A stretch of DNA of 64,000 bases, taken from NCBI RefSeq assembly GCF_963676685.1, contig NC_092344.1:115196001-115260000 (forward strand). Direction: 5' to 3'. The position numbers were made by a program, and so were the translations under genes. Below, in pieces: positions 1,084 through 63,729 of the stretch. Each line of letters starts with the position of its first letter. Position 1 is the first letter of the stretch. This stretch comes from Mytilus edulis (taxonomy: Eukaryota). The notes under the pieces were generated by a model. The model was given only the letters and a program-made list of their open reading frames with translations, was not told the origin of the DNA and did not search any database.

Positions 1084-1774
1084 TGTAACGGTTTCGTTAT
1101 TTGAATTTATAGGTAGATTGATTTACAACCATCACAGTTCTTTTATGAACGGTGGGAGGGCTAAACAATTTTCAAGCATTTACTGGACTTATAGTCGTGA
1201 AATCACATCATTATAATGAACTGTGTCGGGAATGTCAGGATCATATTATTACTCCAACTGAACGTTTATTTTATGTGTAATGTATAAAGAGTTCTTACCT
1301 TTACGATTTATTGTTTGCATTCCGTGGTAGCATCTTAAATTATTCATGTCTATAATTTGGAGTCCCGTTATTTTTATGTACATTGATTTTCATGTACGAC
1401 GCTCTGGTATCAGAATTTGTCAACAATAATGGCGACGACAATATCTGATACCAGAGCGTCGTACATGAAAATCAATGTACATAAAAATAACGGGACTCCA
1501 AATTATAGACATGAATAATTTAAGATGCTACCACGGAATGCAAACAATAAATCGTAAAGGTAAGAACTCTTTATACATTACACATAAAATAAACGTTCAG
1601 TTGGAGTAATAATATGATCCTGACATTCCCGACACAGTTCATTATAATGATGTGATTTCACGACTATAAGTCCAGTAAATGCTTGAAAATTGTTTAGCCC
1701 TCCCACCGTTCATAAAAGAACTGTGATGGTTGTAAATCAATCTACCTATAAATTTAAATAACGAAACCGTTACA
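1084..1774. repeat. Fold-back palindrome of the LTR 5' part (arms ~330 bp, ~30-bp spacer)
   Basis: 1084-1414 is the reverse complement of ~1443-1774, with one visible mismatch at 1103. Confidence 0.92.
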
Positions 1775-1935
1775 ATACCCCCCTACCAAATTTAGTTTGT
1801 CCCCAAACTGAACGCATTTAACAACAATAGTCAATAAGTGAGCATATAAACAAAACAAAAGCTAAATGAACACATTATTGGTATTTAACTGAATTCGATG
1901 CACATATTGTTCGGTTCTAATGTCTTTAAACACGA

Positions 1936-3192
1936 TTAGTAAAATCTACAAGCAATAATGTCACAACTGCTTTCTTTATCCTCGAATGTTTTCTTTACAA
2001 TTGCTGCCATCTCCTCTGTTTGGGTTCCTGATAAGGTGGTTACTGGAGTAACCTGTATATTTTCATCACGAGTTTCGGGCGTAGTAGAAGCCTGAACTCC
2101 AGTTGTCTTGTACCTTCGGACCGGGATGTCTGGCACCCAGTGACTGGTCAGTGAATATACTGTTCCATCCGGGAGCTCACATCTCTCAGTTTTGATTAAA
2201 CCAGAATAACCATCTGGCAAAATAGTAGTAGAAAGGTTGTTTCTCCTAGCCTGTTCCCTGAGTCTCTTCAATAGTACAGCCTCATTAGAAGAGTGATAAG
2301 ACGAAGGAGGACAAAGAAGTACCTGCCTGGGATCCTCATTGTCCTTCTCCTCGGGCAGTCCAAAGTGTCTATAATCATATATTTTTCCAAATTTTAGATG
2401 AGTGGGAGTAATTCTGGAGGGGAGGTAGTTGGGCGTGGGCGTCATCCCATCTATTTCGACAACCCTTATATCTTCTTGGATGACCTCCATGCCGTCCTCG
2501 GTGACTTCGACTAATTGCTCCCTCACCTCTGTCACTGTGTCTTCTCCTGGTCGCTCACTAATTACAGTTTCATCTGGCTCTTGGATGTCCTCACTGACGG
2601 GTACTGATTGGTCATCCATGACTACTGTTCCCTTCTCAATTTCGAAACCATCTGATTCTTTAATGTTATCAGTTGCTATCTTGGCTCGTTCTTGATCCTG
2701 CATGACTGATTTAACAAGCTTCGGAACACTCAAAAGGGGAGTGTTATCTACTGAATTCTCTACCTCTGCGACTGCTATAACTGGTAACGCAAACAGTAGG
2801 TCTTCTGTAGGGGTTGTATGTTTGGTGGCCATGAGTTCCTCGAATTCCACTGTCATGGGTGATGGTTCCCTCAGTGGTGGGCATTCTGCTGAGGGCAATT
2901 TTGTAGCCTCAGAGTTAGTTGAACTCTGCTTCTTCTTCTTCTTCTTTTCCACTTTCTTTACCACTGATGGTATTTTCTTTGTGGGTGTCTTTTGGTTTTC
3001 CTTACTTTCATCCTTGAACTTGTACCAGTGTTTGGATTTCTCATGATGCCTCATCCTGTAGGTGGCATTGGATGATACGTCGTAGGGACACCATCTACAT
3101 TTCACTCTATTATCTGTGTGCGCATAGCGCAAATGCCTCTTGAGACTCTCCAGAGTGGGATAGTTCCTCATACACTCATTACAGGTGAACAT
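1936..3192 (-). CDS. Gypsy ORF3 (env position): 418-aa protein with two N-terminal C2H2 zinc fingers, basic NLS-like run and acidic region
   Basis: CNECMRNYPTLESLKRHLRYAH and CRWCPY...MRHHEKSKH; KKVEKKKKKKQ. Same sense as the element, ending ~150 bp before the PPT/LTR at 1787-1774. The acceptor TTTTATTTTCCCAG lies directly before the ATG. Confidence 0.85.
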   Translation of the reverse strand: MFTCNECMRNYPTLESLKRHLRYAHTDNRVKCRWCPYDVSSNATYRMRHHEKSKHWYKFKDESKENQKTPTKKIPSVVKKVEKKKKKKQSSTNSEATKLPSAECPPLREPSPMTVEFEELMATKHTTPTEDLLFALPVIAVAEVENSVDNTPLLSVPKLVKSVMQDQERAKIATDNIKESDGFEIEKGTVVMDDQSVPVSEDIQEPDETVISERPGEDTVTEVREQLVEVTEDGMEVIQEDIRVVEIDGMTPTPNYLPSRITPTHLKFGKIYDYRHFGLPEEKDNEDPRQVLLCPPSSYHSSNEAVLLKRLREQARRNNLSTTILPDGYSGLIKTERCELPDGTVYSLTSHWVPDIPVRRYKTTGVQASTTPETRDENIQVTPVTTLSGTQTEEMAAIVKKTFEDKESSCDIIACRFY

Positions 3193-3433
3193 CTGGGAAA
3201 ATAAAATTTAACCATGAGTCCGAGAAAACCCAAACAGGAGATACCAGAGCCACAGATTTGATTTTCTTTGACAGCTTTATATTTTAAGTCCTACCCCAAC
3301 CCTGTACAACCATTTGAAAATCCTTAAAACCCTAAATTTTGACTATAAAACCCTTATTTATTTGTGGAAACATTTTCTTTAATTTTTAACCCTTTTACTA
3401 AATTATACAAAATCGTTTAGATATTTCGGCTAT

Positions 3434-4233
3434 TTTTGAGTGTTCCGGAGCTTGTTAAATCAGTCATGCAGGATCAAGAACGAGCCAAGATAGCAACTGA
3501 TAACATTAAAGAATCAGATGGTTTCGAAATTGAGAAGGGAACAGTAGTCATGGATGACCAATCAGTACCCGTCAGTGAGGACACCCAAGAGCCAGATGAA
3601 ACTGTAATTAGTGAGCGACCAGGAGAAGACACAGTGACAGAGGTGAGGGAGCAATTAGTCGAAGTCACCGAGGACGGCATGGAGGTCATCCAAGAAGATG
3701 TAAGGGTTGTCGAAATAGATGGGATGACGCCCACGCCCAACTACCTCCCCTCCAGAATTACTCCCACTCATCTAAAATTTGGAAAAATATATGATTATAG
3801 ACACTTTGGACTGCCCGAGGAGAAGGACAATGAGGATCCCAGGCAGGTACTTCTTTGTCCTCCTTCGTCTTATCACTCTTCTAATGAGGCTGTACTATTG
3901 AAGAGACTCAGGGAACAGGCTAGGAGAAACAACCTTTCTACTACTATTTTGCCAGATGGTTATTCTGGTTTAATCAAAACTGAGAGATGTGAGCTCCCGG
4001 ATGGAACAGTATATTCACTGACCAGTCACTGGGTGCCAGACATCCCGGTCCGAAGGTACAAGACAACTGGAGTTCAGGCTTCTACTACGCCCGAAACTCG
4101 TGATGAAAATATACAGGTTACTCCAGTAACCACCTTATCAGGAACCCAAACAGAGGAGATGGCAGCAATTGTAAAGAAAACATTCGAGGATAAAGAAAGC
4201 AGTTGTGACATTATTGCTTGTAGATTTTACTAA
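3434..4233 (+). pseudogene. 5'-truncated inverted second copy of Gypsy ORF3 (C-terminal ~265 aa)
   Basis: Reverse complement of 1936-2733 with 3 visible amino-acid changes (K>E, I>T, I>V); lacks the zinc fingers. Confidence 0.85.
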
Positions 4234-4381
4234 TCGTGTTTAAAGACATTAGAACCGAACAATATGTGCATCGAATTCAGTTTTATACCAATAATGTGTT
4301 CATTTAGCTTTTGTTTTGTTTATATGCTCACTTATTGACTATTGTTGTTAAATGCGTTCAGTTTGGGGACAAACTAAATTT

Positions 4382-4394
4382 GGTAGGGGGGTAT
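4382..4394 (+). other. Polypurine tract (PPT)
   Basis: GGTAGGGGGGTAT immediately before the TGTAAC LTR start; inverted copies at 1775-1787 and 7194-7206. Confidence 0.85.
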
Positions 4395-5821
4395 TGTAAC
4401 GGTTTCGTTATTTAAATTTATAGGTAGATTGATTTACAACCATCACAGTTCTTTTATGAACGGTGGGAGGGCTAAACAATTTTCAAGCATTTACTGGACT
4501 TATAGTCGTGAAATCACATCATTATAATGAACTGTGTCGGGAATGTCAGGATCATATTATTACTCCAACTGAACGTTTATTTTATGTGTAATGTATAAAG
4601 AGTTCTTACCTTTACGATTTATTGTTTGCATTCCGTGGTAGCATCTTAAATTATTCATGTCTATAATTTGGAGTCCCGTTATTTTTATGTACATTGATTT
4701 TCATGTACGACGCTCTGGTATCAGATATTGTCGTCGCCATTATTGTTGACAAATTACGTCACACATTGAACCTTGGGAAAGTGCAGGTGGCATGACGTCA
4801 CACAAGTGAACGTCAATTCTACTATGTTCTTATACAAAATGTGTGTCACGGTGTGTCTTAGTGTGTCGTCCTTGTATATAAATTTGCGACATCTAAGCAC
4901 TCGGGTTCAGTCTTGTTTCGTCTGGGCGCCATTCCTACGACTTTCAAATAACTAAAGCTGCTTACATATTTTTGTCTTAAGGTTAGCATATAGGATTATA
5001 AATATATAAAAAAAAGGGTTAAAATAATATTTCTGGATATTATCTACAATTTGTCGGTGACAATAACTTTCATTAATTTCATTTAAGAGAATTATACTGA
5101 TTCAATACATATCAACACTGCGACACGGTGCCGACACACATAAGTGTGTCGTGTTTCTAACAACGTATATAAAGCAGATTTTTATACATTCTTTATATAA
5201 ATAAAGATACGAAATTCACTTTTGAAAGTTATAGTATAATACAAGGCGTATTAAAACTAATGGAAGAATAGAATATTGGAATTATTACTCTGAATAGGTT
5301 TTTCGTAGTATTTAGGCCTTATAGGACGACACACTTTTAAAGCAGAGAAATAGTAATAACTCGACACACATACTTATATCATACAAGAGAATATTGTTTT
5401 AGACTAAGTAAGGGAATAAATTGTATATTATCATATTATTTGTTTATTGTCATAGTATTGTTCATAAGAGATATATACTGATACCAGAGCCATTCATTTG
5501 CTACCATAGATGTAAATAAGATACCATAAATCTATTTAGGACGTATTAATAACTGTTTCTTGGTAATTAATCGACTTATTGTTAATTGTTATAAAAGATC
5601 ATAATATATTTCACTTCTAGTTAATAAATCGTTAACTTATTAAATATCTCCTTATATATGCCATACGTGATTCACTTTATACTATCAACTGTACCTAGAG
5701 GCGTTTACGTTCAGGATCATTCCGCTAAGGTTTAATAATAGGAGTACGTTATTGCCCATCCTCCCTTATAAAACGCTCTAGATCCGTTGATAGGTACACA
5801 AAGTTTCTTGGATATAAAATT
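4395..5821 (+). repeat. Nearly complete LTR (~1.46 kb full length; last ~30 bp missing here)
   Basis: Starts TGTAAC. CRE-like TGACGTCA at 4793, TATATAAA at ~4875, Inr-like TCAGT at ~4907. The 3' end ...GCTGATTACA is seen only in the inverted copy ending at 7296. Confidence 0.85.
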
Positions 5822-5938
5822 TGCCAATCTAAAAATCTCACCAAAGAAATGCTCGTTTTTCCAGGAAAAAGTTCATTTCCTTGGTCACGTGGTATCTGAA
5901 GAAGGAGTTGCTACCGACCCTGATAAGATAGCAGCTAT
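5822..5938 (+). mobile_element. 117-bp pol (RT thumb) fragment templated into the insertion
   Basis: Reverse complement of ~10082-10197. Confidence 0.9.
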
Positions 5939-5943
5939 GTAAT

Positions 5944-7265
5944 ACATCTAAGCACTCGGGTTCAGTCTTGTTTCGTCTGGGCGCCATTCCTACGACTTTC
6001 AAATAACTAAAGCTGCTTACATATTTTTGTCTTAAGGTTAGCATATAGGATTATAAATATATAAAAAAAAGGGTTAAAATAATATTTCTGGATATTATCT
6101 ACAATTTGTCGGTGACAATAACTTTCATTAATATCATACAAGAGAATATTGTTTTAGACTAAGTAAGGGAATAAATTGTATATTATCATATTATTTGTTT
6201 ATTGTCATAGTATTGTTCATAAGAGATATATACTGATACCAGAGCCATTCATTTGCTACCATAGATGTAAATAAGATACCATAAATCTATTTAGGACGTA
6301 TTAATAACTGTTTCTTGGTAATTAATCGACTTATTGTTAATTGTTATAAAAGATCATAATATATTTCACTTCTAGTTAATAAATCGTTAACTTATTAAAT
6401 ATCTCCTTATATATGCCATACGTGATTCACTTTATACTAATAAACAAATAATATGATAATATACAATTTATTCCCTTACTTAGTCTAAAACAATATTCTC
6501 TTGTATGATATTAATGAAAGTTATTGTCACCGACAAATTGTAGATAATATCCAGAAATATTATTTTAACCCTTTTTTTTATATATTTATAATCCTATATG
6601 CTAACCTTAAGACAAAAATATGTAAGCAGCTTTAGTTATTTGAAAGTCGTAGGAATGGCGCCCAGACGAAACAAGACTGAACCCGAGTGCTTAGATGTCG
6701 CAAATTTATATACAAGGACGACACACTAAGACACACCGTGACACACATTTTGTATAAGAACATAGTAGAATTGACGTTCACTTGTGTGACGTCATGCCAC
6801 CTGCACTTTCCCAAGGTTCAATGTGTGACGTAATTTGTCAACAATAATGGCGACGACAATATCTGATACCAGAGCGTCGTACATGAAAATCAATGTACAT
6901 AAAAATAACGGGACTCCAAATTATAGACATGAATAATTTAAGATGCTACCACGGAATGCAAACAATAAATCGTAAAGGTAAGAACTCTTTATACATTACA
7001 CATAAAATAAACGTTCAGTTGGAGTAATAATATGATCCTGACATTCCCGACACAGTTCATTATAATGATGTGATTTCACGACTATAAGTCCAGTAAATGC
7101 TTGAAAATTGTTTAGCCCTCCCACCGTTCATAAAAGAACTGTGATGGTTGTAAATCAATCTACCTATAAATTTAAATAACGAAACCGTTACAATACCCCC
7201 CTACCAAATTTAGTTTGTCCCCAAACTGAACGCATTTAACAACAATAGTCAATAAGTGAGCATAT
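5944..7265. repeat. LTR fragments with a shared ~300-bp internal deletion: + copy 5944-6438 folding back into - copy 6439-7193, plus PPT region
   Basis: The deletion junction CATTAAT|ATCATAC at 6131 recurs inverted at ~6510. Confidence 0.85.
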
Positions 7266-7295
7266 TGAAGCGGGTCCGACCTGCTGCCTGTGAGA

Positions 7296-8048
7296 TGTAA
7301 TCAGCGACAATCTCCTCAACGACAACAATTTTATATCCAAGAAACTTTGTGTACCTATCAACGGATCTAGAGCGTTTTATAAGGGAGGATGGGCAATAAC
7401 GTACTCCTATTATTAAACCTTAGCGGAATGATCCTGAACGTAAACGCCTCTAGGTACAGTTGATAGTATAAAGTGAATCACGTATGGCATATATAAGGAG
7501 ATATTTAATAAGTTAACGATTTATTAACTAGAAGTGAAATATATTATGATCTTTTATAACAATTAACAATAAGTCGATTAATTACCAAGAAACAGTTATT
7601 AATACGTCCTAAATAGATTTATGGTATCTTATTTACATCTATGGTAGCAAATGAATGGCTCTGGTATCAGTATATATCTCTTATGAACAATACTATGACA
7701 ATAAACAAATAATATGATAATATACAATTTATTCCCTTACTTAGTCTAAAACAATATTCTCTTGTATGATATAAGTATGTGTGTCGAGTTATTACTATTT
7801 CTCTGCTTTAAAAGTGTGTCGTCCTATAAGGCCTAAATACTACGAAAAACCTATTCAGAGTAATAATTCCAATATTCTATTCTTCCATTAGTTTTAATAC
7901 GCCTTGTATTATACTATAACTTTCAAAAGTGAATTTCGTATCTTTATTTATATAAAGAATGTATAAAAATCTGCTTTATATACGTTGTTAGAAACACGAC
8001 ACACTTATGTGTGTCGGCACCGTGTCGCAGTGTTGATATGTATTGAAT
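7296..8048 (-). repeat. 3' half of LTR, undeleted allele, including the ...TTACA terminus
   Basis: Reverse complement of 5100-5821, plus the terminal ~30 bp. Confidence 0.85.
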
Positions 8049-8143
8049 ACCGTGTCGGTGATGCTGTCTGGATATTCAACCCATTGCGAAGAAAAGGGTT
8101 AAGTCCAAAGCTGCAACCACACTGGATAGGCCCTTACATCATT

Positions 8144-11100
8144 AGACTTAACCCTTTTCTTCGCAATGGGTTGAATATCCAGACAGCATCACCGACACGG
8201 TATTGTCGCGAATGGACCCTAGTGTCGTACTGACGTTTTTGTCTATCACTTGCGTGTTTCATCTTCTCTCTTGCGACATCGTGTATGTCCCAAAGCCCCT
8301 TTCGTAAATCTTTTAGGTAATCATTCTCGGATTTCTCGTCCGTCTCTATACTATCTGGGTAAGATCCAAAAATCAGGTCAATGGGAAGTTCAATTTCCCT
8401 TCCGAACATCAACATGGAGGGCGAAAACCCTGTACTCTCATGGTCGGATGACCTGTAAGCCATGAGAGCTAACTGTAGATGTTCATCCCAGTCTTTTTGA
8501 TGTTTAGTTACGTATTTACTCAAAATATCTTCCAAAGTCCTGTTTAGCCGCTCTACCATTCCATCACTTTGTGGATGCATTGCTGTTGTTCGTGTCTTGT
8601 CTATTTTTAATCTGGAACATAGATCCTGAAACAGTTTGGACTCAAACTGAGTTCCTCTATCTGTGTGCAACTGTTTTGGAACTCCAAAACGTGACACAAA
8701 TTGACTGACAAAAATTTCAGCAACTTCTTCAGCGGTCAGACCAATCATAGGGTAGGCTTCGGCCCATCGCGTGAAATAGTCCGTGAGAACTAAGATGTAC
8801 CGGTAACCTGAATGAGTTTTGGGTAAAGGGCCAAGAATGTCAATGGCCACCCGTTCTAATGGTGCCCCCACCAGGTACTGCTTCATAAGTCCTTGATAAT
8901 GTTTCTGGGGTTTCTTACGAGCTTCGCACGTTTTACATTGTCGACACCATTGTATAACGTAATCCTTGTAACCTGCCCAATAAAATCGTCTCGAAACTCT
9001 GGCTAAGGTGCGATGTTGGCCAAAATGTCCAGCGGGTGGATCGTCATGCAGCATTTTCATGACTTCCTCATGCCAACAGTCAGGTAAGATTAACTGGGTT
9101 ATTTCACCCTTGTCTTTGGATTGCCAACACCTATACAGGACACCATTTTCCAATTTTATCTTGTTCCATTGGGCCCAATAAACTTTCAAAGTTATGCTTT
9201 GAAAAGAAATATCTTCCCAATTGGGCCTTTCTGTACCTTTCACTTTCATCTCCCGTAATTGCTTCAAAATCGTGTCGTTTTGTTGAGCAGTTGCGATTTC
9301 CACGAGGCTTCTACTCTGTACCCATTCAAAGCTGTCCGTGTTATCTTCTATGTCGACTTCTTCGGTATCGAATATTTCAGGTTCCTTTGTGGCTCCTTTC
9401 GCGACTCTGACATGTTCAATGTCATCTTTCTCAGTATTTTCTCTGTTCTTACTTTCTTGACGGGTGCAGTATGTACACGGAGAACATGGACGCCGCGAGA
9501 GTCCATCTGCATTATTGTGTTGCCTGCCAGGTCTGTGTTGAATGGTGAAATTATAGGAGGCAAGGATCTCCAACCATCTCGCGGTTTGACCTTCAGGGTT
9601 TTTGAAATTCATTATCCAATTGAGTGCGCCGTGATCTGTTCTTACCAGGAACGGGACTCCATACAAATAGTGATGGAAATGTTTGATGGATAAAACTACT
9701 GCTAACAACTCCCGTCGAGTGACACAGTAGTTCCTTTCGGGTTTATTCATACTCTTGCTGAAATATGCTATAACCTGCTCTTTTTCGTATGTTACTTGTG
9801 ATAGCACTGCCCCAATTCCGTACCCACTAGCATCGGTATCTAAGATGAAAGGTTTGCTAATATCCGGATATCCAAGTATCGGAGCTGAGATTAGGCATTC
9901 CTTCAGTGTATCGAGCGCTTTTTGGCATTCTTGAGTCCATTTAAATCGATCCCCTTTTTCCGTAAGTTTATGAAGTGGCCTAGCTATGTCAGAGAATCCA
10001 CGAATGTACCTCCTATAGTAAGAGCAGGTACCTACGAAACTTCGCACCTCGTGAACTGTTTTAGGGGTAGGCCACTCTTTTATAGCTGCTATCTTATCAG
10101 GGTCGGTAGCAACTCCTTCTTCAGATACCACGTGACCAAGGAAATGAACTTTTTCCTGGAAAAACGAGCATTTCTTTGGTGAGATTTTTAGATTGGCATT
10201 TTTGATTTTTGATATAACTTGTTCTAAACGGGACAGGTGCTCTTCAAATGAATCTGCAAAAATTATGACATCATCCAAATACAGCAGGCAAATTTGCCAA
10301 TTCAGCCCTGACAGAACGCACTCCATGAGTCTTTCGAAACATGCGCCCGCGTTGCATAACCCAAATGGCATTACTTTAAATTGGAAAAGGCCTTTAGTTG
10401 TGACAATACTCGTCTTTTCTTTGTCGGATTCGGCCATCTTTACCTGCCAATAACCACTTTGCAGATCAATGGTCGAATACCAACTTGCGCCTCTTAGAGC
10501 ATCCAGACAATCTGCTATTCTTGGGAGTGGATACGAGTCCTTTTTTGTCAAATGGTTAATTTTTCTGAAGTCCGCGCAGAAGCGCCAAGAGCCGTCGGAT
10601 TTCTTAGGTACTAGTACGATTGGGGACGACCATGGACTAGTACTAGGCTCGATGATTCCTCCCTCCAGCATCCGGTCTATTTCTTGATCTGCTGCCTCCC
10701 GTTTGGCCAGAGGAAGACGTCTCGGATTCTGTTTAACAGGCCTGGCATCACCCGTGTCAATTGTGTGTTCAATGAGGTCACAACAACCCAAATCATTCTT
10801 TGATTTTGCAAAAGCATCGCTGTGTCGGATCAGTAGATGTTCCAACTGCACTCTCTGCTCTTCGGACAACTCACGACTACTTGCCATGAAAAGACCCTCA
10901 AGGTGGTGAGGTAAGATTGAATAAGTCTTTTCTGGGTCCTCGGTATTAGTAGTAATTATATTAGTTCTTACTACTTCACTCCTTTCAGGAGGTTCCGACT
11001 GAAAGGAACCATATGGTAGTGTCTCACATGTTGCAAGATTGGTGTGTCGGTAGATGACACATTCTGTGTCGATCATGTTAACAATACGCATCGGTATTGT

Positions 11101-11477
11101 ACCATTGCTAGGGTCAACTACCGATCGTGCGACATGAAAATTCGTGTCGGTACTTGGCTCTTCTGGTTCAACAATAGCGTCAGAAATATGACTCGAATCT
11201 CCTACTATTGTTGCTCTTATAATGGATTCCGAAAAAGGTGGTAATGTAACATTTTCATCAATGGTAACCTTAAAAATAGTCGCCATTTGCGACTCTTTCT
11301 GACATGCAATCTCAGTGCCTCCAAATGTTATAGTACCCTTGCCAAGGTCAATCTTACAGTTGTGTCGGTTTAGTAAATCATATCCCAAAATAGCCGGAGT
11401 ATCAATATCGGCTATCAATAAGATGTGTTGAAAACATTTCCCGTTTATTGTAATGGAAAATTCTGCTTTTCCATTAC
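8144..11477 (-). CDS. pol: Gypsy pol: partial aspartic protease, reverse transcriptase, RNase H, integrase; truncated at both ends by junctions
   Basis: ILGYDLL, SPWSSPIVLV, DLQSGYWQ, MPFGLCNA, YLDD, TDASGYGIGAVL, HHCC zinc motif, D-D-E integrase core; no stops over 3.3 kb. The GPY/F motif (PKLQPHWIGPYII) is on the inverted 8046-8143 piece. Confidence 0.95.
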
Positions 11478-11551
11478 TATGAACGGTGGGAGGGCTAAAC
11501 AATTTTCAAGCATTTACTGGACTTATAGTCGTGAAATCACATCATTAGCAA

Positions 11552-11619
11552 CCTTAGCAACCTCATATGGTAACACATCATGATGAGATCTAACTATTGT
11601 CCAAATAAGGTCATGATAT
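11552..11619 (+). repeat. 68-bp target duplication, right copy
   Basis: Identical to 1016-1083; preceded by an extra TTAGCAACC micro-duplication. Confidence 0.9.
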
Positions 11620-39800: not shown

Positions 39801-40072
39801 AAAATTCAGTCAGGGTTCGCCTAAAGTATGAATCTGATTTTAAATTAGATCTAATAGATGTTGATACTATTTTTCTCCACAAGTAAGAAAACCACCAGTC
39901 CACTGTAGTGGTGATACGCACAACAGACAAATAGGTGTATACAAGGGAAAACGGATACATTTAAAAAGATTTTTTTACTGTTATTTTGTTGGAAAGCATG
40001 CAGGTTTCATCAGATATCTATATTTTATATGTTAAAACCCTTGAAAATAATTTATTTTGTAGCAATGACTAC

Positions 40073-41755
40073 ATGATAATGGACGAGCTTTGGAAAGACA
40101 AAATATTTTGGACTCAAGAGAAATGCAGAGAAAAAGAAGTTGAGCCCGAGAAAAGCGACAGTGATTTTGGTCAGACTATTAACATCAAAGAAATTCGTGT
40201 TCCAGACAGTCAAACGACAGGACTTGAAGATGAAGAGGCTGATAAACTGAGCGAAGGAAAACCAGAGGAAGTGGACGCTTTCAAGTCGATAGAAAATAAA
40301 GTCATAGGGTTGTACTTTGCTGCAGACTGGTGTATTCCGTGCCAAGAGTTCACATTTTTATTAAAACAAACCTATGAAGAACTGAAAGAGCGTATATCAC
40401 CATTTGAAATTGTCTTTGTCAGTTTTGATAAGAAAATAGACGATATGAAGACTTTCTTCTCAGAAAAGCATGGTGATTGGTTATCTGTGCCATATAAGGA
40501 TCCGTTAGTTGAGTAAGTTTAGACCAATTCTACAACTTGGGAGATAATATTGTAATATCTCAGACTTAAGCAACCACAACCCATCACTCAGATTATCTCC
40601 GGTGTTTGATTATACTCATTTTATCATATGTACTTCTTAAACACATTTTCATCAATACGAATAACTAGCAGAGTATTAAAACTTGTGTGTTGATTTAAAT
40701 GTTGAATACTTAAACTTTCTTATTTTTTTTTCTTCTGGAGTACCTGTATGCACTTTGCTCTTTTATTCTATATACCCCCCCCCCCCCCCCCCCCTGGAAT
40801 CCCTCTGACAGACTGAGTGAGCGTAAAATCACTGTTATCGATAGTCGATGGCAAACAAGTTAAATGATTCAGTATTATTACTAACATAAGTATTGCGGGT
40901 GTTCACACTGTTTTGAAAATGATTCTATATTTTTACTTTGCAAAATCAATGCAAGCCAAACGCACACTGCATATTTGATTTCACACGTAAGTTTTAGGGT
41001 TAGCAAGAGTCTTGCTTTAATTAACTTTTAGTTTATTGTTGCATTTGACAAATGTTCAAAAGAAGTCCAAACACTTTCTAAATAATGTAATATAAGTTGG
41101 GTCACGATGGTCCCTACTAACTTGTCTCTGAACGTCGGAAAGAGAATTTTGGAACCAGATCGTTTTCAGATCTCATCTTAGTTTCAAGCATGTTGGTAAA
41201 ATACCAATCTAATTAAAAACCGATCTCTCATCGCTCCTGTTTCTAATATGTCGCGATTTTAATTAGATTGGTAAAATACAAATAGGATATTGGAATGGAT
41301 GTAGAGATGTGCACAAAAAAAAATAAAACAAGACACGTTTACGTGTACGAATCACTGCAGATACTTGTTTCAACATTCTGTGAAAACTTATACGCCTCAC
41401 AAAAAATTAACAGTTCAGCTTCCATTTTCAACTCTTGTATTATTTACCTGAATATCTATTTATTTTATATTCTAGTGTACTAAAATCAAAATACGAAATA
41501 AAGGCGATTCCAAAGCTGATTATAATTAGAGACAATGGAACGATAATAACAGAGAAAGGACGCAAGGACATTCAAGACAAGGGCATTATATGCTTTCGGG
41601 GGTGGTTGCAGAAGGCTAACCTGTCTGCAACAAAACCATCTGAAAAAACTTTAGACAGTGAGAAACAGGATGAGACAAAACTAGTTGAGAATAGCATTGA
41701 GAAAGAGAAAACCGTCAGTTTTAAAGAGAACGTCTCGAGTATTACTATTGAGTGA
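40073..41755 (+). CDS. NXNL2: Nucleoredoxin-like single-thioredoxin-domain protein; exons ~40073-40512 and 41476-41755
   Basis: KVIGLYFAADWCIPCQEFT…FEIVFVSFD…HGDWLSVPY | IPKLIII…KGRKDIQDKGIICFRGW; phase-2 GT/AG intron. Start uncertain (acceptor at 40062). Confidence 0.82.
41205..41270. mobile_element. 66-bp MITE, same family as 15019-15118, in the NXNL intron
   Basis: CAATCTAATTAAAA...TTTTAATTAGATTG; perfect 9-bp TSD GTAAAATAC. Confidence 0.8.
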
Positions 41756-42537
41756 ATTATAGTATCATGAGTATATCTGGAAGTTTTTTATGACAGAGAA
41801 AGATTAACTCAATGTTATCTGTATAAGTTGATATCATTAGAAATCGTCATCTGATTTCATAGTCACAGGAGGCCTCGGTGGTTTTTATGAAATGTTCACT
41901 GATATTTATTGCCAATTTTTTTTTTATATCTTGCCATAAATTTAAATTCTTACCAAAAACCGATTTTCAGGAAATTCGAGTGTGAATTCTTGCCAGACTT
42001 TCATTTCATTGTCATACTACACTTATAGAAGAAGAATGCACGAGACACCACTCCCCAGATATGAATGCATATATTTATAGGCTAGACAAAATAATATTAA
42101 AGCAGTATACTGACAACCGTAATCAACTACTTTTCCATTCTGAAAATATTGTTCTGGTTGAACAGTTATGCTTCATGTGCTTTTAAAACAATGTATATGT
42201 CAGTTTCCTGCCATTTAATATTTTCTTATTTTTATGTAATGTTTTTTTTACTGTATTATTATCAATGTTTATCAATAAATCTGAATTAGATTGAATTAAA
42301 TGATCTGTTTCAAGTGTAAACATTGTCAATTCAGTCGTTCAAACATAGGAACCTTTTTTGTGATTATTGAAATTTTTCAATCAGAATTGAGGATTATTTT
42401 TGTTTGGTACTGGAAATTCTGTATTGTCTTACCTAAACTGAATTAGGTAAGAAGTGTTTTTCGAACTCCCACGGCTTGCTACTGGAAGATGCCGGATTCT
42501 CTGTTTGCTATATCACGGCTCTTCCTAAGGTAGTTGA

Positions 42538-43566
42538 GTCGACTGTAGATGTTTTGGTGTGGTACTTGGACCATCCTCTTCATGCTGCTGTGTCGACTGT
42601 AGATGTTTTGGTGTCGTACTTGGACCATCCTCTTCATGCTGCTGTGTCGACTGTAGATGTTTTGGTGTCGTACTTGGACCATCCTCTTCATGCTGCTGTG
42701 TCGACTGTAGATGTTTTGGTGTCGTACTTGGACCATCCTCTTCATGCTGCTGTGTCGACTGTAGATGTTTTGGTGTCGTACTTGGACCATCCTCTTCATG
42801 CTGCTGTGTCGACTGTAGATGTTTTGGTGTCGTACTTGGACCATCCTCTTCATGCTGCTGTGTCGACTGTAGATGTTTTGGTGTCGTACTTGGACCATCC
42901 TCTTCATGCTGCTGTGTCGACTGTAGATGTTTTGGTGTCGTACTTGGACCATCCTCTTCATGCTGCTGTGTCGACTGTAGATGTTTTGGTGTCGTACTTG
43001 GACCATCCTCTTCATGCTGCTGTGTCGACTGTAGATGTTTTGGTGTCGTACTTGGACCATCCTCTTCATGCTGCTGTGTCGACTGTAGATGTTTTGGTGT
43101 GGTACTTGGACCATCCTCTTCATGCTGCTGTGTCGACTGTAGATGTTTTGGTGTGGTACTTGGACCATCCTCTTCATGCTGCTGTGTCGACTGTAGATGT
43201 TTTGGTGTGGTACTTGGACCATCCTCTTCATGCTGCTGTGTCGACTGTAGATGTTTTGGTGTCGTACTTGGACCATCCTCTTCATGCTGCTGTGTCGACT
43301 GTAGATGTTTTGGTGTCGTACTTGGACCATCCTCTTCATGCTGCTGTGTCGACTGTAGATGTTTTGGTGTCGTACTTGGACCATCCTCTTCATGCTGCTG
43401 TGTCGACTGTAGATGTTTTGGTGTCGTACTTGGACCATCCTCTTCATGCTGCAGTGTCGACTGTAGATGTTTTAGTGTCGTACTTGGACCATACTCTACA
43501 TGCTGCTGTGTCGACTGTAGATGTTTTGGTGTCGTACTTGGACCATCCTCTTCATGCTGCTGTGTC
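42538..43566. repeat. Minisatellite, 54-bp unit x 19, near-perfect
   Basis: GTCGACTGTAGATGTTTTGGTGTCGTACTTGGACCATCCTCTTCATGCTGCTGT; no spacers. Confidence 0.97.
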
Positions 43567-44853
43567 ATACTTCGATAAAGTAGCGATTCCATACTGAGTT
43601 GCCGAATTATGTGGTGACGTAGTCTTTAAATGAATTGGTGTTGGTCATATTATTAAGTCGAAATAGTCCATCAGGTTCTCTAGTGCATGTGATACAAAAG
43701 GAAGGCCTGTTCTGTGTACAAGGTAGTGATTGTTCATACAAAAGTATTAAATTAGATCAAATAATTTTTCCATTTGAAGATTACATTCATGGGTTTAAAA
43801 TTAAATAAGCAATTTAATATCTTATTTTCTGATATTTCACTATTGTCTCAAGTGTGATACATTCTGTATGCGTCTGTCCAAAGACCGGAGCCTCTAAGTC
43901 AGTTGTAGTTGGATACTTTCTGTCATAATTGTTTTTCTTTTGTAGTGTTATCATAAATAAGGGGATAATTCTCGGCTGAAATGCTTTACATTTTTTCATA
44001 TCGGTACTCTTTATGGTACATACGACATGCGTTTTTATCATATTTCTTATTTTGTGTATGTCTATTTCAGGAATGAATTGACGTAAAATGAGTATAAAGT
44101 TGTCGAATAAAAACTGCATCTCACTTGTCAGAATGAGATTGAAGTTCTATTAAACCCACGAAAAGTAATATTTACTACGGCATAGCTTGAAAGACTTCAA
44201 GAAGGTGAACACATTTTCATATCTTTTCTAAAGTAATGGAGATTATGGTATAACGACTCAACTGCCAAAAATAAAGATATTATTACCAACATTTAGAAAA
44301 CCCCAAACACAATATTAATTAATTAATTCCAACCACTTCAAACCGTACAGAAACAACCAGGACAAACACGTAACTTGGCCGTAACACTTTGAAAAACATG
44401 GAACCACCTGTATAATCAGTTACATCGTTCATTGGTATACAGAAAATGTTTATCATTCAACACGAGACTGAAACATAAAAGGTGATCCATATGACCAAGG
44501 GGACCTCAACATCTTTCAGGACCGAGAGATAAAATTTCTGAAAAAAAATGACAGAAAATATCGTTCATCGTCAAAATAAATTGAACAGATTGTCATCAGA
44601 TAATCAAAGGTGCTATTTCGTTATGTTATCAAGTTTTGGCGTCTGTCATATGTCGTGCCATCGTCTTTGTTCAGCGACTGCTTAAACGTTATTTGTCATG
44701 TGAATTCTTCACTTATTAAGTTATTATGAATAATATGTTGGGTATATATATATAGTTCTATAGCAACATCTACATGTCACCTGACCTTGAACTAACTATA
44801 TTTATCAGTGATCAAGGTTAAAGACTTAAGTTACGTAATTAGTATAAAAAAGA

Positions 44854-51108: not shown

Positions 51109-53458
51109 AGGTAACACGAATGACCGAATAACACTGTTATTATCCGAATAACACATGTAATGACCGAATAACTCTTCAAATATCAATATTAACACATTTG
51201 AGTGACTTTTAAACATATATTATTGAATAAAATTATAATAGAAGTGTATTTTATAACCTAAAAATGATTTACAAGTTGCAGGTAAGTTAATATTGATCAT
51301 TATAAATTTATGGATATCTGTGTGTATTTCCAAGATGGCGATGGCGACCAAGGAAATCGTATAGAATGAATAAAAGAAAGATTGCATACAATCCCTCAAT
51401 GTGTTCATCTTAGACCACCAAAGTGGAGCCCTCACGCCACGTCAAGGCAATGAACAATGTGAGGGTGTGCCTTTTTAAAATAAAATATGGAATAGTAAAC
51501 TGTTTAAATTAGTTTTTGTTTTAATTTTAGTTAGTTATTAAAAAAATTATTATCTTTATCATATTATTATATTTTTAATTTAGAAATGGATGTTAACCAA
51601 GCCCCTTTTAAACTCTAAAATTACAACTACTAAGATATCCTACACAAGGCACGGGCTTATCTGTCATAGTCCGCGAATATACTTTAATTAGAATTTATTG
51701 TAAACATTTTATAACTACTAAGATATCCTGCACAAGGCACGGGCTTATCTGTCATAGTCCGCGAAAATACTTTATTTAGAATTTATTGTAAAAAAATTAT
51801 AACTATTAAGATATCCTGCACAAGGCACAGGTTTATATGTCATAGTCCGCGGAAATAATTTATTTAGAATTGTTAAAAAATATTTATAACTATTAAGATA
51901 TCCTGCACAAGGCACAGGCTTATCTGTCATAGTCCGCGGAAATACTTTATTTAGAATTTATTGTAAAAAAATTATAACTATTAAGATATCCTGCACAAGG
52001 CACGGGGTTATCCGTCATAGTCCGCGAAAATACTTTATTTAGAATTTATTGTAAAATATTTATAACTATTAAGTAATGCAGCCTTGGTAAACCAAGACAG
52101 TCACAAGCCTGTTAATGCAGAGTGTCCATACCGTAATATAATTTCATTATCTCTTAATGATTAATTATGTAATGGGCATGTGTCAGTAAACAACAACCGA
52201 ATTAACAATATAACAGAAGTAATGATTATTTTGTTTATTGGAACATATTAACTCATTATCACTACTAAATTATATATTTGGTACTGAACATTTCACTATT
52301 AAAACTTATTCAATGTATGAAAATAAAGGAAAGTAGCAATAAAAAAACGTAAATACTAATTATTTAGTAATTAAGCAAATTTAATACATTTTAAATGAAA
52401 TAAGAAATAAATGAAATATAATAAACTTAGTGAAAGATTGTCTTCTTTGAAATTGAAAATTAAAATTTTTATTTTAAACTTCTTTTTCCATGTTTTGTTC
52501 TCTATTAATAATATAAAAACTCAATTTCACATTTATATACCTTATAATAAACGGTATGTCTGAAATATACTTTAAAAAATACTTACCTTTCTAGGGCCTT
52601 GGCCATGTCATACTTGTTGTCTGTAAAGCAGCAGTCCTTACATAGGAACTTTAGAGACACATCTGACCAGGCCAATAACAATGCTTCATCCATTGGGACA
52701 CAAGCACTGTGAACCCAACGATCACAACAACTGCATTGAATGGTGCAATCAACACATTCTTCATCACATTGAACACACGGATATAAAGCCATTTTGAAAA
52801 TGGAAGACAGCACAAATGTCTTCATGGTTTTTTATACAAAATTATAGTTACTTGTAAAAACATTTATATTTGCCAATGAAGTTTTGAGAAAATTTTATTA
52901 GAACAAACATACGAATCATCCATTCAGAAGCTTTGTTTTTATTAAAACAATCAAGTATAATAATTTTTTAATTAAATTTGAATTGAATATGTGAAAATTC
53001 TTAATTACATTTTATTTAATGTTGAGTAAATTGTTATGAAAAGTAATTAGTGATTGGAGTAATTGCATTGCTTTGATGTAATGGTTAAATTTTCAAATCC
53101 TTTCTGAAAAACAATCATTAGACAATTCTCTGTATATACAGTAAAATATTTAATACTATATTTTCATAGCGTTTTCCTTTGAAGGCATATGCAATCTTTC
53201 TTTTATTCATTCTATACGATTTCCTTGGTCGCCATCTTGGAAATACACACCGATATCCATAAATTTATGATCAATATTAACTCACCTGCAACTTGTAAAT
53301 CATTTTTAGGTTATAAAATACACTTCTAATATAATTTTATTCAATAATATATGTTTAAAAGTCACTCAAATGTGTTAATATTGATATTTGAAGAGTTATT
53401 CGGTCATTACATGTGTTATTCGGATAATAACAGTGTTATTCGGTCATTCGAGGTACCG
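51109..53458 (-). mobile_element. Non-autonomous Mutator-like element (~275-bp TIRs, 9-bp TSD) carrying a PHD-finger exon and a ~90-bp x5 tandem repeat
   Basis: TIRs 51109-51388 and 53188-53458; TSD TCAATAAGG; repeats at 51625-52073. Confidence 0.85.
52587..52792 (-). CDS. PHD-finger first exon inside the MULE
   Basis: MALYPCVQC…IQCSCCDRWVHSAC…FLCKDC (C4-H-C3), ending at an AG|GTAAGT donor. Confidence 0.75.
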
Positions 53459-62816: not shown

Positions 62817-63729
62817 ACTGTTAGTGTTGCTCTCCACCAATTGCAACTCATTCAAAATTTTGACCAAATTGCAATTTGTTTTATTATACCAAATTGTTCA
62901 ACTGGTCAGAATATTGAACAAATTGTTCAGTCAAAATGTGAAAGTGCAAGGTGATAAAATAAAACATACTTACAATCCTATAAGACTTTAACTCCACTTT
63001 AATGATGTTGTGACAAAATTAGTTTATCAGTTTGTATAGTTATATTATAGTCATTTCCATGCTGAAGAGGAACTGTTTATTTTGAATTGCTATAAAATTG
63101 TCCAAACTAAGCTTTCATATAGTTTTTCTTTCTAAAAGTATTCTATATTTATAACAATCAGATATCATTTTAAATAAAACATCATATATTCAGTAAAATA
63201 TGTGTGAAATAACAATATGCTATTGATAAGTTTTCAGGGGAGATAACCTAAAATATTATTCTTTTGAATAAAGACTTTTTGAAAGAAAAGTTATTATCTC
63301 CCCCATGGAAACTTCCTACAAACATATATTGCAGTTTAACACATATTTTACTGAATATGAAATGTTTTAATTCACATAATGTCTGATTCTTATAAATATA
63401 GAATACTTTTAGAAAGAAAAACTTTATGAAAGCTTAGTTTGGACAATTTAATAGCAATTCAAAATAAACAGTTCCCCTTCAGCATGGAAATGAATATAAT
63501 ATAACTATACAAACTGATAAACTAATTTTGTCACAACATCATTAAAGTGGAGTAAAAGTCTTATAGGATTTTAAGTATGTTTTATTTTATCACCTTGCAC
63601 TTGGCTGTGGTTTTCTACAGCAGTTGGTTCAAATTTCTGACCAGTTGAACAATTTGATTTTATAAAACAAATTGCAATTTGGTCAAAATTTTGAATGAAT
63701 TGCAATTGGTGGAGAGCAACACTAACAGT
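62817..63729. mobile_element. Fold-back element with ~230-bp inverted arms in CSPP1-like intron
   Basis: ACTGTTAGTGTTGCTCTCCACCAATTGC... vs ...GCAATTGGTGGAGAGCAACACTAACAGT. Confidence 0.8.

Follow-up and report, generated by a model that had tools for sequence, protein, structure and literature searches.

The window analysed here is a stretch of 64,000 nucleotides of the Mytilus edulis contig NC_092344.1 (positions 115,196,001 to 115,260,000, with all coordinates below counted from its first letter). It contains an open reading frame, ORF3, which is annotated here as a non-env accessory gene of 418 amino acids. ORF3 was identified by ORF calling on the minus strand (1936-3192), where the frame is open over 1936-3207 and the ATG is located at 3192. 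An earlier note on this DNA had described a 418-aa ORF ending just before a polypurine tract (PPT) and an LTR, which is indeed the case, since 145 nt separate the stop codon from the PPT (1775-1790, minus) and the LTR starts at 1774 with TGTAA (1414-1774, minus), until it is cut by a fold-back at about 1414-1421. The two C2H2 zinc fingers that had also been claimed (residues 4-25 and 32-55; 3028-3183, minus) score below the curated Pfam cut-off (zf-C2H2_4, E 0.0011) and are confirmed by AlphaFold, with a pLDDT of 90-97 across residues 1-60, as well as by structural comparison, the top matches being classical C2H2 pairs (YY1 with Z 5.9, rmsd 1.8, 52 aligned). Finger 1 is canonical (C-x2-C-x12-H-x3/4-H) and the pair has the tandem beta-beta-alpha architecture of C2H2 proteins; finger 2 has a 14-residue spacer with two extra residues before the helix and still folds as a finger. 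In the predicted model the fingers resemble DNA-bound C2H2 pairs in fold, which as a common fold by itself shows no function. The Lys-rich run of the earlier account is present at residues 79-88 (2929-2958, minus) and may act as a nuclear localisation signal (NLS); close relatives have kept its basic character, not the exact run. It is followed by a conserved Ser-Pro motif (residues 106-112; 2857-2877, minus), a candidate phosphorylation site, and by a region that had been called acidic and Pro-rich, of which only the first holds, as D and E make up 25% but Pro 7% of residues 101-250. Two features were absent from that first account: a conserved core domain of a helix and three strands (residues ~287-354; 2131-2334, minus), defined from relatives and AlphaFold, and a tail with three LC8-type Gln-anchor motifs (residues 363-369, 376-382 and 387-393, the last being GTQTE; 2014-2106, minus). 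According to AlphaFold, order is confined to residues 1-60 and about 301-355, and the rest of the chain is disordered. The last nine residues (1939-1965, ending CRFY) are shared with the closest subfamilies (7/10 identical in the relatives P0008 and P0009), not with distant ones, and represent a possible docking or degron motif. The absence of a signal peptide or transmembrane (TM) segment, as stated before, is confirmed by a maximum 19-residue hydropathy of 1.1. Because ORF3 thus has no hydrophobic segment, it is not an env protein; this identity is ruled out also by the zinc finger at the N-terminus and the lack of any env Pfam match. Nor does ORF3 show the signal peptide, the furin site or fusion peptide and the TM segment at the C-terminus that characterise errantivirus-type env.

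The locus around ORF3 is scrambled. In self-comparison, the region 1084-11551 breaks up into pieces that are about 98-100% identical to one another and lie in either orientation, a mosaic that also contains fold-backs (1081-1777 and 8046-8204). This is not an intact element: it includes the ORF, the PPT and the LTR start, but has no gag and a truncated pol; a gag-sized ORF was not found anywhere in the window. At the left end of the insertion an LTR start is joined to host DNA (1084-1421, plus), and 11552-11619 (plus) repeats the host flank 1016-1083 and continues as empty-site-like sequence, which points to an insertion after ...ATAT, within a host repeat, that is recent or heterozygous. The mosaic would be explained most simply by a young insertion, perhaps heterozygous, that was misassembled; a true rearrangement is conceivable. 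A second, partial copy of ORF3 comprising its 3' part (3434-4233, plus) shows three amino-acid-changing versus no silent differences from the first, which are too few to interpret. Between ORF3 and the mosaic junction upstream of it lie about 240 non-coding bases, and the stretch that ends at this junction (3219-3433, minus) is AT-rich with stops in every frame. The longest LTR-containing piece (4395-5821, plus) consists of the LTR and probably the 5' leader, with TTACA at 4962-4966 as one candidate for the LTR 3' end; no PBS was found, and a tRNA scan detected no tRNA. Among the terminal features of Metaviridae, the TGTAA start of the LTR and the PPT are seen in the window. A unique, GC-richer tail after a leader-like piece (7265-7330, minus) may be the approach to gag or an LTR end with PBS. 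The pol piece (8134-11477, minus) is truncated at both ends, carries nine GTGTCG sites and encodes RT, RNase H and integrase (Pfam RVT_1 299-459, RT_RNaseH 548-651, Integrase_H2C2 808-865, rve 882-978), which is the domain order of Ty3/Gypsy elements (Metaviridae). It begins at a junction, and no protease family matched there. Elsewhere in the window, a thioredoxin-like ORF (39965-40516, plus; Thioredoxin_8, E 1.6e-16) is likely a host nucleoredoxin-like exon, and long inverted-repeat elements at 51110-53457 and 62817-63729, in which 191-nt arms of 98% complementarity flank 88-nt tandem repeats and a 277-nt fold-back occurs, are likely non-autonomous DNA transposons.

ORF3, PPT and LTR are contiguous in two pieces of the window, whereas pol and ORF3 are not. 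Because the locus is scrambled, the window alone cannot prove their linkage, which was examined through chimeras among automatic gene models by BLASTP of the window pol against 112 proteins. Besides itself, pol matched five of them (P0007, P0019, P0021, P0069, P0074), and P0113, nearly identical to P0019, is a sixth pol-ORF3 chimera. The pol part is N-terminal of the ORF3 part in all six. In P0074 the pol part extends past the integrase C-terminal domain, and the ORF3 that follows is 80% identical to P0016; P0007 originates from M. galloprovincialis, and P0069 was placed by its fingers alone (48% identity). By best match the six chimeras belong to four subfamilies, the representatives of which fall inside one 34-row clade (support 98/88) in a tree built from the 61 core-bearing proteins, out of 75, whose core match was neither short nor weak; this clade covers the subfamilies of the chimeras, and the other 27 rows are more distant. 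Other fused partners (RING, OTU, an eIF3 subunit, Tpt1) occur once each. In the Tpt1 case, the distant core-bearing relative P0083 has a predicted fusion to a Tpt1/KptA RNA 2'-phosphotransferase domain, which is either a gene-model chimera or a real neighbour. A weak search of proteins of 941-2685 aa found no pol-ORF3 fusion among 7775 candidates. Because six chimeras from four subfamilies carry pol upstream, the layout of pol followed by ORF3 is supported. The earlier claim of an element-encoded non-env gene beside Gypsy pol has gained from the chimeras, from the conservation and from the acceptor signature described below. It seems highly improbable that ORF3 is a host gene, a passenger caught by a single copy or an assembly artefact beside an LTR. 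The scrambled locus with its separated pol, together with the 104 of 110 ORF3 matches that lack pol sequence (the six others being the chimeras), would be compatible with such an origin. However, it is opposed by the contiguity of ORF3, PPT and LTR in two pieces, by chimeras from four subfamilies and at least one other named species (P0007), and by the fragmentary state of many relatives, which would fit decayed copies of an element. Taken from the sequences, these observations support ORF3 as a conserved, element-encoded, non-env gene of nuclear type downstream of Gypsy pol.

The exhaustive search for the ORF3 family yielded 105 representatives at E<=0.001 and, with further searches added, 110 distinct matches, some of which are unrelated multi-finger proteins. 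The best database match is a Mytilus edulis protein, with 96% identity over the matched stretches. With the core region as sole query 74 of the 110 proteins were matched, query included, and a profile derived from the core matches 75 of 111, a number that is circular, as the profile was built from those matches. Members of the family consist of a C2H2 pair, a variable low-complexity linker, the core of ~70 aa and a short tail. Identity to ORF3 in the fingers, around the core and in the acidic linker is 33/60, 69/124 and 18/101 for P0008, 21/60 (in a model without finger 1), 76/124 and 19/101 for P0009, and 25/60, 58/124 and 29/101 for P0016, respectively. This pattern, high in fingers and core and low in the linker, supports the view that ORF3 has been under selection. 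No Pfam entry matched the family or its core, and no Foldseek match at E<=0.001 was found for the core fold in PDB or BFVD, which does not prove the fold to be new; the best structural comparison was VIA (Z 3.4 among 48,161 chains). Searching PDB sequences with ORF3 gave weak finger matches only, the ESM Atlas held no usable match for the core and, with P0033 as query, only generic C2H2 clusters, and a homodimer prediction for the core, run with no alignment used, gave no verdict (score 0.00). Present annotations of mussel genomes list the ORFs of this family as anonymous zinc-finger genes of the host.

Directly 5' of the ATG of ORF3 lies a candidate splice acceptor (3193-3218, minus) composed of a branch-like CTCAT, a pyrimidine tract and CAG. 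The earlier note had called this acceptor strong. Scoring of 375 AG sites from the ORF3 and pol pieces put the CAG, which has 10 pyrimidines in the 12 bases before it, in the top 6. Similar remnants can be read from the relatives: in six of seven unspliced read-through models (P0024, P0044, P0052, P0099, P0106 and P0108, the exception being P0085) Gln stands directly before the position of the start Met and after residues rich in Phe, Leu, Ser and Tyr, as a pyrimidine tract plus CAG would encode, although the Gln codon may equally be CAA. P0044 and P0052 are near-duplicates with Leu in place of Met. In the spliced models P0064 and P0069 foreign exons are joined just before the start Met; seven relatives with longer N-termini of their own were left out as uninformative. 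This supports conservation of the acceptor in the ORF3 family, with splicing of its RNA as a putative step. A scan of the LTR-containing piece found no strong consensus splice donor.

The tail behind the core is marked by a recurring motif. Fifty-one family members extend >=20 residues beyond the core. In these tails TQT was counted 39 times, spread over 28 proteins, compared with 3.8 expected from composition shuffles (maximum 12 in 2000); the 7977 residues that precede the core contain none. The wider pattern [TVI]Q[TV] occurs 62 times versus 10.6 expected, in 36 of the 51 proteins, and is lacking in the tails of the other 15. Since the tail of ORF3 has a pLDDT of only 40-54, its TQT anchor lies in a disordered region, as in LC8 clients. 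According to the accessible part of PMC6607443, TQT is the LC8 anchor, VSRGTQTE is the best binder, and the anchor alone is insufficient for binding. Residues 388-393 of ORF3 (SGTQTE) resemble this best binder. We infer from this likeness that the ORF3 tail may bind LC8. As far as the accessible sources go, LC8 is mainly a dimerisation hub (PMC3078936, PMC9481538) and in flies also a component of piRNA-guided silencing complexes (PMC7919418, PMC7861614).

A candidate target for the fingers is found in the element itself. Within the LTR piece (4395-5821) GTGTCG leads the enriched hexamers (7 vs 0.31) and GTGTGTC the heptamers (7 vs 0.13), both with 0/500 dinucleotide shuffles, and nine GTGTC sites are present, five on the plus and four on the minus strand. 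Three GTGTGTC copies at 10-nt spacing (4841, 4851 and 4861, the third alone with G next) belong to a putative promoter (4841-4911, plus) that continues with a TATA-like sequence at 4875-4883 and TCAGT at 4907-4911, which we take to be initiator-like. GTGTCG was taken from the LTR piece as a prediction, which makes the test in pol independent. There it occurs nine times versus 2.07 under synonymous-codon shuffles (0/3000, then 0/5000), at 9 of 23 positions permitted by the protein, two in sense and seven in antisense orientation, and shares the p floor with five other hexamers out of 2080. Six other top LTR hexamers were tested in pol, and among these TGTGTC, which overlaps GTGTCG, was the only one in excess (p 0.02). 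A general CpG excess was rejected as the cause, as pol has 126 CpG versus 134.5 in shuffles. ORF3 contains no GTGTCG (0.63 expected) and host DNA seven in 51 kb outside a tandem array. Other hexamers are above synonymous shuffles in pol (8162-11478) as well, namely GTAAGA (9 vs 1.7), ACGGGA (6 vs 1.1) and AACGGG (5 vs 0.8). The 54-nt host array (42412-43683, i.e., 42.4-43.7 kb) carries GTGTCG about twice per unit and accounts for 33 of the 40 matches in host regions, which is probably a coincidence; its open frames have 330-386 codons, and the one scanned gave no Pfam match.

The occurrence in both orientations favours a double-stranded DNA site, and a site of 6-8 bp suits two C2H2 fingers. 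The proposal of a nuclear regulator or anti-silencer, put forward in the earlier note, has thereby gained a candidate target word in the LTR piece and in pol, while binding of ORF3 to it is putative: the recognition code is inapplicable because finger 2 is atypical, and a host factor could equally bind the word. C2H2 fingers also bind RNA or protein. It is conceivable, but rather unlikely, that ORF3 is an RNA factor like Rev or CERV, i.e., that the product of the spliced RNA exports the unspliced genomic RNA with RNA-binding fingers and that the DNA word is for a host factor. An element with an internal acceptor needs export of unspliced RNA, ORF3 carries a conserved Ser-Pro motif, and the available text on CERV of the C. 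elegans Ty3/Gypsy element Cer1 describes a spliced, nuclear, phosphorylated non-env protein that exports genomic RNA from the same slot (PMC10309623). However, a motif present in both orientations, in the LTR piece (5+/4-) as well as in pol, is unlike an RNA element. Moreover, CERV, compared by its partial description only, has, instead of a C2H2 pair, a leucine zipper and a Cys-rich loop of C4 type, shares exons with gag and is limited to nematodes (PMC10309623), whereas ORF3 has the C2H2 pair, a different conserved domain, the TQT tail and a candidate DNA word.

Our preferred reading, to which we assign a probability of about one half, is that ORF3 encodes a DNA-binding protein by which the element activates itself or counters its own silencing. 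ORF3 would be made from a spliced subgenomic RNA using the acceptor directly before its ATG, would be nuclear by virtue of its Lys run, and would probably be dimerised by the host hub LC8 via the TQT tail. The two fingers would then bind GTGT(GT)CG-type sites across the proviral DNA of the element, those before the TATA box of the LTR being stacked one helical turn apart, and ORF3 would activate transcription or protect the element from silencing; host factors might be recruited by its acidic linker or its core. Points against this reading are the absence of GTGTCG from ORF3 itself, its occurrence in the 54-nt host array and the 15 tails that lack even the wider TQT pattern. The same DNA binding could also result in negative feedback for copy-number control, as the evidence for it gives no sign of the effect and the sites in pol could suit repression; such a self-repressor appears very unlikely to us, since long acidic disordered linkers are more typical of activators. 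Quite unlikely, too, is a role before integration, in which ORF3 attaches to the motifs of newly made cDNA and, through LC8/dynein and the NLS, couples this DNA to nuclear entry or integration sites. Sites in pol as well as in the LTR, the strongly conserved TQT tail and the viral use of LC8 that is mentioned in the accessible literature would fit this, whereas the densest and helically phased sites are located directly before the TATA box, and LC8 is described, in the parts of PMC3078936 and PMC9481538 at hand, mainly as a dimerisation hub. Extended beyond this copy, the preferred reading as an activator or anti-silencer would mean a widespread Ty3/Gypsy lineage of marine invertebrates in which env was replaced by an LC8-dimerised C2H2 transactivator or anti-silencer, with a CpG word in the LTR and in synonymous pol codons that diverges together with the finger helices; this extension is tentative, and we consider it more doubtful than probable.

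Several known systems share single traits with ORF3. Complex-retrovirus transactivators such as foamy-virus Tas/Bel1 are encoded, like ORF3, by an accessory gene near the 3' LTR and act on their own LTR; complex retroviruses (Retroviridae) also keep env, and to our knowledge Tas/Bel1 and its kin are not C2H2 proteins. The host transcription factor ASCIZ/ATMIN has C2H2 fingers at its N-terminus, and errantivirus env is expressed from a spliced RNA. Similar to ORF3, ASCIZ/ATMIN contains several LC8 motifs in a disordered region, but it is a host gene and, without direct comparison and within the text accessible, no likeness to the core was seen (PMC5963919, PMC10046861). In env-carrying Ty3/Gypsy elements including errantiviruses the third ORF occupies the same slot, but ORF3 lacks a signal peptide and a TM segment and does not resemble fusion proteins of the kind described in the available portion of PMC13524379. 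The VANC proteins of Arabidopsis VANDAL elements, as partially covered in PMC5735166, are also element-encoded and bind short, partly tandem motifs accumulated in their own transposons, as GTGTCG has accumulated here. However, these are plant DNA transposons with binding demonstrated in non-coding regions, whereas ORF3 is a C2H2 protein of an LTR element with the word also inside pol and with presumed binding, so that the likeness is at most a functional analogy, not membership. The earlier statement that a self-encoded nuclear regulator is atypical for Gypsy needs to be qualified, as precedents exist in Cer1 CERV, itself a nuclear non-env regulator, and in the ORF3s of bdelloid LTR elements (PMC10309623, PMC5408684, each as far as accessible). 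The latter are likewise non-env accessory ORFs in Gypsy-type elements, but encode enzymes or membrane proteins (GDSL, DEDDy, TM), and spliced expression is stated there for ORF3s generally (accessible part of PMC5408684). The maize Grande element, from what is available on it, is another Gypsy-type element with a non-env accessory ORF.

Non-env ORFs in the env slot are thus already known, whereas the C2H2 ORF3 family is apparently undescribed. The word "zinc" does not occur in the bdelloid paper (PMC5408684) or in the survey of env-carrying Gypsy elements (PMC13524379), neither "ORF" nor "zinc" occurs in a mollusc LTR survey (PMC6238403), and the accessible parts of PMC8220671 and PMC12440569 mention only env-like or other additions. 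Full-text searches, with Repbase, subscription journals and supplements outside their scope, found no description of the family. ORF3 represents a real and, as far as these searches go, undescribed accessory gene family of Gypsy elements, which Repbase, subscription journals or supplements may already annotate. The family offers a conserved domain of ~70 aa without assigned family or fold and, if our reading is true, many natural pairs of fingers and targets for testing co-evolution with simple assays. Simple LTR retrotransposons are thought to depend on host transcription factors. A conserved, element-encoded zinc-finger family with its cognate word would, if true, be a Gypsy counterpart, in animals, of the complex-retrovirus transactivators and of plant VANC.
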